DNA from: Bacillota bacterium
GTDB lineage: Bacteria; Bacillota; Desulfotomaculia; Desulfotomaculales; JBFMEU01
DNA length: 64,000 bases
Direction of reading: 5' to 3'
NCBI GenBank assembly: GCA_040753155.1
Contig: JBFMEU010000004.1
Span: forward strand, 1,056 to 65,055
Numbering within the stretch: position 1 is the first letter of the stretch; each line of letters starts with the position of its first letter. The position numbers and the translations under genes were made by a program. This document shows positions 8,927 to 9,044 of the stretch, one piece after another. The notes under the pieces were generated by a model, which was not told the origin of the DNA, searched no databases, and saw only the letters and a program-made list of their open reading frames with translations.

Positions 8927-9044
8927 GTAACTACTCAGGAGTCAGAAGCCAGAAGTCAGAAGCCAGAAGTCAGGAGTCAGGAGTCAGGAGTCAGAAGTCA
9001 GATCTGAATACTGACTCCTGAATTCTGAATACCTGAATAGTAAC
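8927..9044 (+). mobile_element. family-B element copy B2 (TIRs only, expanded heptamer array)
   Basis: gtaactact followed by 10 heptamers (caggagt/cagaagc/cagaagt...), ending ...ctgaatagtaac. A perfect 8 bp direct repeat tttggtat lies at 8919-8926 and 9045-9052. Confidence 0.85.

Follow-up and report, generated by a model that had tools for sequence, protein, structure and literature searches.

What are arrays of tandem 7-mers doing at the ends of small repeated elements, and why does the number of units vary? The question arises at positions 8927 to 8998 of a 64-kb stretch of bacterial DNA (the window), which consist of GTAACTACT and nine phased heptamers (in order, CAGGAGT, CAGAAGC, CAGAAGT, CAGAAGC, CAGAAGT, three CAGGAGT, and CAGAAGT), followed by CAGATCT. 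Heptamer arrays had been predicted at the left ends of a family of repeated copies, here termed B copies, and these arrays are real. TRF reported a period of 7, 9.7 copies, and a score of 94 for the array at 8927, and the 12-mer GTAACTACTCAG occurs 12 times in the window (≤1 mismatch) against 0.06 occurrences expected, a count matched by 0 of 100 shuffles. Nine window copies begin with GTAACTACT and continue with two to nine CAGNAGY heptamers. The opposite end of complete copies is a complementary (NNNCTGA)n array terminating in AATAGTAAC or GAGTAGTTAC; the element ends are GTAACTACT ... AGTWAC, and the bounds can also be written GTAACTACT...AGTAGTTAC.

Some details of the original prediction were revised. 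Unit counts, which exclude CAGAATG, are 2, 9, 4, 3, 4, 4, 3, 4, and 4 for B1 to B9 in positional order, the second becoming 10 when CAGATCT is included. The predicted distribution (one 2, two 3s, five 4s, and one 10) stands, but the values of the seventh and eighth copies had been swapped (the seventh has 3 and the eighth has 4). The last unit was said to run into an ATG. A final CAGAATG does hold the ATG that opens an open reading frame (ORF) in eight of the nine copies, but not at B2, the copy at 8927, whose left array passes directly into the right arm without an ATG or ORF. The ribosome-binding-site-like AGGAG is present in each CAGGAGT unit and absent from CAGAAGT, CAGTAGT, and CAGAAGC. 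Also, a degenerate tenth copy (54424 to 54748, minus strand) was omitted from the earlier list of nine, and the window holds 10 copies of 62 to 425 bp in 64 kb, without a transposase gene.

The short ORF is the N terminus of a PF05635 four-helix-bundle (4HB) protein, the 23S rRNA intervening sequence (IVS) protein. A 38-amino-acid (aa) ORF fragment from the window matched PF05635 with an E value of 1.7e-5, which is below the gathering score because the fragment is truncated, and it also matched NF008911/TIGR02436. Intact 121-aa relatives are 78 to 96% identical, and all belong to PF05635; the protein search returned at least about 120 clusters at 78 to 96% identity, and at least 7,999 PF05635 relatives passed an E value of 1e-5 (7,999 of the 8,000 candidates scored). 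Pairwise dN/dS values among intact copies were 0.06 to 0.15, the signature of purifying selection, indicating that intact copies encode a functional 4HB protein. Among solved structures, the closest is that of Xcc0516 (2GSC), reportedly a pentamer of four-helix bundles, and we know of no function for PF05635 proteins outside DGRs.

The window copies preserve this gene only in pieces, and 8-bp direct duplications flank the complete copies. B2 (8927 to 9044, plus strand) is a minimal, 118-bp element with the terminus GTAACTACT at 8927 to 8935, nine heptamers at 8936 to 8998, CAGATCT at 8999 to 9005, and a right arm of (NNNCTGA)n ending in AATAGTAAC; it has no ORF, and the 8-bp duplication TTTGGTAT lies on both sides. 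B1 (3975 to 4109, minus strand) has a left terminus at 4101 to 4109, two units at 4087 to 4100, CAGAATG at 4080 to 4086, an N-terminal 4HB ORF fragment, and a truncated right side, and B5 (40659 to 40793, plus strand) has a left terminus, four units at 40668 to 40695, an N-terminal ORF fragment, and no right end. B3 (16329 to 16528, minus strand; 200 bp; four units at 16492 to 16519) is internally deleted and has the target duplication TTGGCAC, while B4 (35179 to 35240, minus strand; three units at 35211 to 35231) is a 62-bp mini copy with the target duplication TAACGGCG. B6 (43611 to 43787, plus strand; 177 bp; four units at 43620 to 43647) has near-perfect inverted ends and the flanks AGCTCAAT and AGTTCAAT, and B9 (58875 to 59043, plus strand; 169 bp; four units at 58884 to 58911) keeps a C-terminal part of the 4HB ORF and has the target duplication CCTGATTA. 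A small palindromic element is nested in B7 (44130 to 44399, plus strand; 270 bp; three units at 44139 to 44159), at 44235 to 44358, and sequence of the same element is nested in B8 (51996 to 52420, minus strand; 425 bp; four units at 52384 to 52411), at 52085 to 52308. The degenerate B10, which carries this nested element as well, has lost the GTAACTACT terminus, and its ATG has become ATT.

Every window copy is thus internally deleted, frameshifted, or truncated, and every window ORF is truncated or frameshifted. The copies are intergenic or lie in 5′ untranslated regions (UTRs) among housekeeping genes, and the ten largest window ORFs, all housekeeping genes, include no transposase. No B copy matched an Rfam family at the gathering threshold, and the only Rfam matches in the whole window were a tRNA and a T-box. 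Because of the internal deletions, complementary ends, 8-bp duplications, and lack of a transposase, we regard the window copies as MITE-like relics of a 4HB gene cassette.

A perfect sigma-70-like promoter (43827 to 43855, 12/12 consensus) drives a T-box leader at 43874 to 44109. B6 lies just upstream of this promoter, and B7 is inserted within the 5′ UTR of the regulated operon, immediately behind the leader terminator; the operon comprises an AsnC-type regulator and an aminotransferase. There is no terminator-like site between B2 and its upstream gene. Judged from these sequence contexts, some window copies (B7, after the T-box terminator, and B2, with no intervening terminator) are very likely transcribed.

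To follow the arrays between close relatives, we used a JGI contig of a sister strain that is 99.4 to 99.8% identical to the window; an ENA contig matched the window at 100% identity. Over the 34.5 kb in which the window and the sister strain align collinearly, with 159 mismatches, the only indels of >1 nt were array changes at B2 and B7, and the arrays are the most indel-prone sequence of the compared region. Unit number differed at two of the six comparable arrays. B2 has 11 units in the sister strain versus 9 in the window, and (CAGAAGC CAGAAGT) occurs there once rather than twice and CAGGAGT seven times rather than three, a difference in composition that indicates two independent unit-change events. 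B7 has four units in the sister strain versus three in the window. Counts at B3 to B6 are equal in both strains, with one substitution each in B3 and B4. The predicted instability of unit number is therefore borne out, and invariant counts across strains, which would have spoken against it, were not observed. Collinearity stops inside the B1 array (position 661 of the sister-strain contig L101, equivalent to window position 4090; array at 4087 to 4100), and the sister strain has unrelated upstream sequence, an RHS-repeat region, beyond it, placing a rearrangement breakpoint in the array. A metagenome scan for the B2 flank, seeking more strains, gave 0 matches. The unit changes probably arise by slipped-strand mispairing, and slippage itself is ordinary repeat instability; since all window ORFs are dead, the unit-number differences in the window most likely amount to neutral side effects of repeat instability.

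The sister strain also contains two extra, ∼200-bp copies lacking an ORF, and the window contains the corresponding empty sites. One of these copies, 200 bp in length, corresponds to an empty target site at approximately 35297 to 35304 of the window (no strand assigned) and is flanked by AAATGGGT and AATTGGGT, versus a single AAATGGGT, read on the minus strand, in the window. The second copy has ATATCCTT(G) on its flanks. We conclude that the element was recently mobile and that it must be mobilized in trans.

An exact scan for GTAACTACTCAGNAGTCAG identified at least 69 genome loci. Among the matches listed, the 19-nt terminus, with the first unit, has identical copies in more than 10 phyla, its hosts including Bacillota, Desulfobacterota, Verrucomicrobiota/Kiritimatiellia, Nitrospirota, Deinococcota, Thermotogae, Bacteroidota, Cyanobacteria, a Colwellia genome, and others. 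Most of the listed matches are 43- to 430-bp derivatives with 8-bp duplications (among them AAGCTTTT, AGTTTATT, AGGACAAA, AATTGAAG, GTACACCT, and CAAAAAGG), and more than 15 examples of 8-bp target duplications were found in the window and across many phyla. These duplications, the recent transposition, and the cross-phylum spread had no part in the original prediction. Intact elements include L044 (626 bp), which has 32 heptamers and encodes 121 aa in an ORF whose final codons and stop fall inside the right array, and L057 (432 bp), with symmetric termini and the duplication AAAAAACGG/AAAAAAAGG; L128 and L139 retain a 4HB ORF (102 and 140 aa as called, respectively) and 8-bp duplications.

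Paired ends ≤6 kb apart enclosed short elements only and no transposase (69 loci among the matches listed), and no autonomous element with the same terminal inverted repeats (TIRs) was seen in the 69 listed loci, the ten largest window ORFs, or viral contigs. The terminus was absent from 2.9 million viral contigs and from a phage collection. The GTAA ends of the element and its 8-bp direct repeat presumably recall the IS66 family, whose ends begin with GTAA and which has 8- to 9-bp direct repeats, and an IS66-family-derived MITE is a possible lead. Solo GTAACTACT termini without a 4HB remnant also occur. In a Colwellia MAG (L026, 4736 to 4830 of a 2.76-Mb contig), the solo terminus is followed by (CAGCAGT)10, and in Nostoc (L025 and L045) by two units, with a (TCCCCTCA)n-type repeat next and a gene downstream of it. 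Solo TCAGGAG arrays are found on Nostoc plasmids.

Two further repeat families share the neighborhood. The small palindromic element nested in B7, B8, and B10 (∼121 to 135 bp, AGAAGACTTGG...GGCTGTGCGAAGATAA) has internal hairpins and always adjoins ATAA; it occurs at 679 to 800, nested at 44235 to 44358, 52085 to 52308, and 54513 to 54636, and at 2688 to 2810 of L070. It follows tRNA-Gly in the sister strain (L070 and L073) and is absent there in the window, L071, and L072, and thus has also been recently mobile. It looks like a possible palindrome-associated element of the IS200/IS605 type. A third intergenic repeat family of ∼134 nt, with GC-rich hairpins, copies 97 to 100% identical, and no Rfam match, lies at 7355 to 7488, 11146 to 11279, 17617 to 17750, 47985 to 48115 (minus strand), and 63901 to 64000, partially at 46312 to 46403 and 16004 to 16061, and at 233 to 367 of L101 in the sister strain. 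Just downstream of B2 and tRNA-Gly, positions 9408 to 10970 encode a SCIFF (six-cysteines-in-forty-five) peptide and a radical-SAM/SPASM maturase, and a dsrAB-dsrD and dsrC region lies at ∼28.8 to 38.5 kb. From dsrAB/C/D, SCIFF, and YpeB/SleB-type genes, the host would be a spore-forming, dsr-carrying member of the Bacillota.

Across relatives, arrays contain 2 to 55 units, with a modal arm of 4 to 5. The longest, 55 AGGAGNY heptamers over 384 bp in Phosphitispora fastidiosa (L084, 813 to 1196 of JAHHUL010000004.1), occupies all of the space from the flgK stop codon to the first codon of an intact 4HB gene, with a flagellin gene downstream; the right arm of this locus has only ∼3 units. L172 has an intact 4HB gene with ∼28 heptamers on each side (1286 to 1484 and 1837 to 2038), forming ∼200-bp inverted arms whose G/A variant pattern is common to the outer and inner ends and different in the middle.

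We then considered a metagenomic set of 80 intact 4HB loci, with shifted positions as the control. Three or more phased units were present downstream in 49 of 55 and upstream in 32 of 57 intact loci, compared with 1 of 35 controls. The arrays reach into the gene at both ends: a CTGA unit supplies its TGA as the stop codon in 49 of 62 cases, and an in-frame CAGAATG start occurs in 19 of 75. Distant 4HB genes (on cyanobacterial and Riemerella plasmids) have other heptamers, still inverted on both sides (GGAGATA/TATCTCC, CAGGTGA/TCACCTG, GGGAAAA/TTTTCCC, AAGGTTY/RAACCTT, and GCAGAAG/CTTCTGC); a period of 7 was best in 10 of 15 such flanks, and arm complementarity reached a z score of ≤−3 in 11 of 15. 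Synonymous divergence (dS) between Bacillota and Nostocales copies is saturated, yet both use TCAGGAG/TCAGAAG/TCAGAAT units, which argues for constraint on the arrays themselves.

The upstream neighbor is on the same strand at 10 of 11 plasmid 4HB loci, and some plasmid 4HB genes are wedged tightly between neighbors, such as cmr2-cmr3 or cas6-cas4. In a Picosynechococcus plasmid (L092, cas10/cmr2-cmr3) and an Anabaena sp. 90 plasmid (L093, cas6-cas4), the 4HB gene lies 35 to 45 nt from the cas genes and has inverted short-repeat arms. A 4HB subgroup mostly from termite-gut metagenomes (L109 to L114, L116, L119, L120, L123, and L133 to L138; 73 to 84% identical to the query) is without an upstream array and has the conserved upstream flank ...TTATTCTACAAYA...; downstream are (ATACTGA)n or (ATTCTGA)n and then a TTGCGGCnnnGCCGC hairpin; these loci are not rRNA. 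A group II intron domain lies near the 4HB locus of L145.

The left array was also predicted to be complementary to the opposite arm, giving a long potential RNA stem, and folding in silico agrees. The predicted folds were −43.1 kcal/mol (z score, −4.7) for B2 and −64.8 kcal/mol (z score, −6.2) for B6, the latter with a 25-bp perfect terminal stem, and L057 and L044 gave z scores of −4.9 and −5.6, respectively; the predicted L057 stem takes in the Shine-Dalgarno (SD) sequence and AUG. The idea that unit number tunes stem length fails as a general rule. Expansions are mostly one-sided (9 to 10 units versus ∼5 in B2, 32 versus ∼5 in L044, and 55 versus ∼3 in L084), leaving the extra units unpaired, and we therefore rejected lengthening of the stem as the general explanation of expansions; the only symmetric one is L172 (28 versus 28).

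These data are best accommodated, in our judgment with a probability of roughly 55%, by a joint reading in which the arrays would be the subterminal, heptamer-built parts of the inverted repeats of a MITE-like transposon and would form an IVS-like RNA stem in the intact cassette. In the transcript of an intact cassette, the purine-rich left array (TCAGRAG, with SD-like GGAG) would pair with the pyrimidine-rich right array (CTYCTGA). The left array would sometimes include the start codon in its final CAGAATG unit, CTYCTGA units of the right array would specify the final codons and provide the TGA stop, and the paired arms would place an IVS-like stem around the 4HB ORF. If the IVSs of Coxiella, Leptospira, and Salmonella are a guide, RNase III would cut this stem, and its cleavage would let the cassette sit in operons, 5′ UTRs, or rRNA. 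A stem built of repeats would tolerate slippage, since each unit is able to pair with every other, and it follows from the sequence that a period of 7 puts TGA in all three reading frames across three consecutive right-arm units. Transposition would be catalyzed in trans by an enzyme making 8-bp staggered cuts.

An alternative explanation for these data could be that the heptamers act at the DNA level only, as subterminal transposase-binding repeats comparable to the ends of Ac/Ds, En/Spm, Mu, and Tn7, with unit number modulating transposition efficiency and the RNA stem incidental. Such repeats would fit arrays that abut a conserved 9-nt terminus in mobile elements with fixed 8-bp duplications, the identity of the 19-nt terminus and its first unit across many phyla, the modal arm of 4 to 5 units, and the continued transposition of 200-bp copies that have no ORF. 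Moreover, covariation of the arms is equally expected of a transposase-binding TIR and to that extent counts against the RNA stem. However, only 3 of the 80 intact metagenomic 4HB loci keep the GTAACTACT terminus and the other 77 keep inverted arrays without it, the arrays overlap the SD, start, and stop of the ORF, and no transposase was found in the loci searched. There is, in addition, a sense-strand G·U bias: in 45 of 70 elements, the duplex formed by the sense strand has greater stability than that of the antisense strand (Wilcoxon P = 2e-4; the elements are not phylogenetically independent). This bias is weak evidence for RNA-level selection, with the left arm's purine and SD content and the nonindependence of the elements as confounders, and the window's own dead copies have no such bias (three of seven). 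Taken together, we consider an exclusively DNA-level role unlikely.

We regard as very improbable a contingency (phase-variation) switch, in which slippage would alter the number or spacing of SD-like units and so tune or switch translation of the 4HB gene. Unit number does vary between strains here and among Coxiella strains (PMC4990558), and roughly half of the intact genes have a GGAG 5 to 10 nt ahead of the ATG. However, whole units added upstream leave the proximal SD-ATG spacing unchanged, and one intact locus with a short, heterogeneous array was identical in 10 population samples, from which we conclude that short, heterogeneous arrays are stable. Tuning of translation, as originally proposed, cannot matter for the window copies, whose ORFs are all pseudogenes, and the Coxiella IVS protein reportedly appeared not to be made in vivo (PMC4990558). 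Finally, arrays that are functionless in any context, products of mutational bias and hitchhiking with the element, would account for variation in dead copies and for one-sided expansions of up to 32 and 55 units but hardly for the persistence of the same units where synonymous sites are saturated, the joint change of left and right units in distant subfamilies, or the start and stop codons embedded in the arrays, and we give this little credence.

The joint reading, a transposon end that doubles as an IVS-like stem, was compared with known systems. The originally suggested analogy to rRNA IVSs fits, in that the ORF is of the 23S rRNA IVS protein family and the Coxiella IVS has variable heptamers before its S23p ORF. 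Like the 23S rRNA IVSs of Leptospira and of Coxiella burnetii (helix 45), the elements contain an S23p/PF05635 ORF enclosed by stem-forming terminal inverted repeats. The Coxiella IVS has two or three GACAGAT heptamers, depending on the strain, ending in ...CAGAATG before the S23p ORF, with the RNase III cleavage site at the first repeat (PMC4990558); in the present register, GACAGAT reads CAGATGA ... CAGAATG. It is the only precedent that we found for variable heptamers before such an ORF. Unlike the 23S rRNA IVSs, the present elements lie outside rRNA, have the GTAACTACT terminus, 8-bp duplications, and insertion polymorphism, and have lost the ORF in the window copies. We rejected a literal rRNA IVS: no rRNA context (23S helix 25 or 45) was found in the window or at 20 related loci, and no copy with a GTAACTACT terminus lay inside an rRNA gene among the loci examined. 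The copy at L041 is ∼500 bp downstream of a 5S gene.

The elements resemble bacterial MITEs in being small and multicopy, with TIRs, a fixed-length target duplication, no transposase, and empty sites (two filled/empty pairs). They differ in that what the full-length parent encodes is a 4HB protein maintained by purifying selection rather than a transposase, the TIRs consist of heptamers in tandem arrays whose length varies, and an autonomous partner was not found in the 69 listed loci. Whole-unit changes between strains are shared with simple sequence repeat (SSR) contingency loci, but the window contains no intact regulated gene, and the present repeats belong to the inverted ends of a mobile element.

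Period-7 intergenic arrays, often directly upstream of start codons, have been described in Cyanobacteria, Beggiatoaceae, and Bacteroidetes (STRR and TAACTGA repeats; PMC4679880). Related strains differ by 7-nt-step indels, and the arrays are patchy across phyla, with "no mechanism evident" (MacGregor 2015, PMC4679880). That report makes no mention of S23/four-helix-bundle genes, intervening sequences, or target duplications (PMC4679880). The right arms described here are NNNCTGA units, and some relatives have (ATACTGA)n, but unit sequences differ between the two systems, and we offer a link between them as a lead. Literature searches by family, repeat type, and sequence found no TIR- and duplication-bounded cross-phylum 4HB cassette or MITEs and none of these sequences. 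Relative to the literature searched, what is new is an IVS-type cassette that behaves as a transposon elsewhere than in rRNA.

To our knowledge, the origin of rRNA intervening sequences has been an open question since about 1990. Here, an IVS-type cassette has been caught behaving as a transposon, with a conserved terminus, 8-bp duplications, and filled and empty sites in near-identical strains, and the old hypothesis that an IVS is a mobile element is now testable. In a wider and decidedly speculative scenario, which we think has only a slim chance of being right, the 4HB gene and its inverted arrays would constitute a self-contained and hitherto unrecognized class of mobile cassette. Its sole protein, homologous to the DGR accessory protein Avd, would be the mobility factor that recognizes the arrays and recruits a host nuclease or polymerase, and the stem would permit excision from any host RNA. 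The insertions or footprints of such cassettes would include the 23S rRNA IVSs, the 23S_rRNA_IVP genes of cas operons, and the puzzling intergenic heptamer arrays seen in Cyanobacteria, Beggiatoaceae, and Bacteroidetes. The transposon-like behavior of the IVS-type cassette also suggests how enigmatic heptamer arrays may spread horizontally. Papers on cas-locus content count 23S_rRNA_IVP genes among those associated with CRISPR, and this published link to CRISPR-Cas could stem from cassette insertions instead of a functional partnership. The same warning extends to other operons, in which 4HB genes may be insertions and not functional partners.
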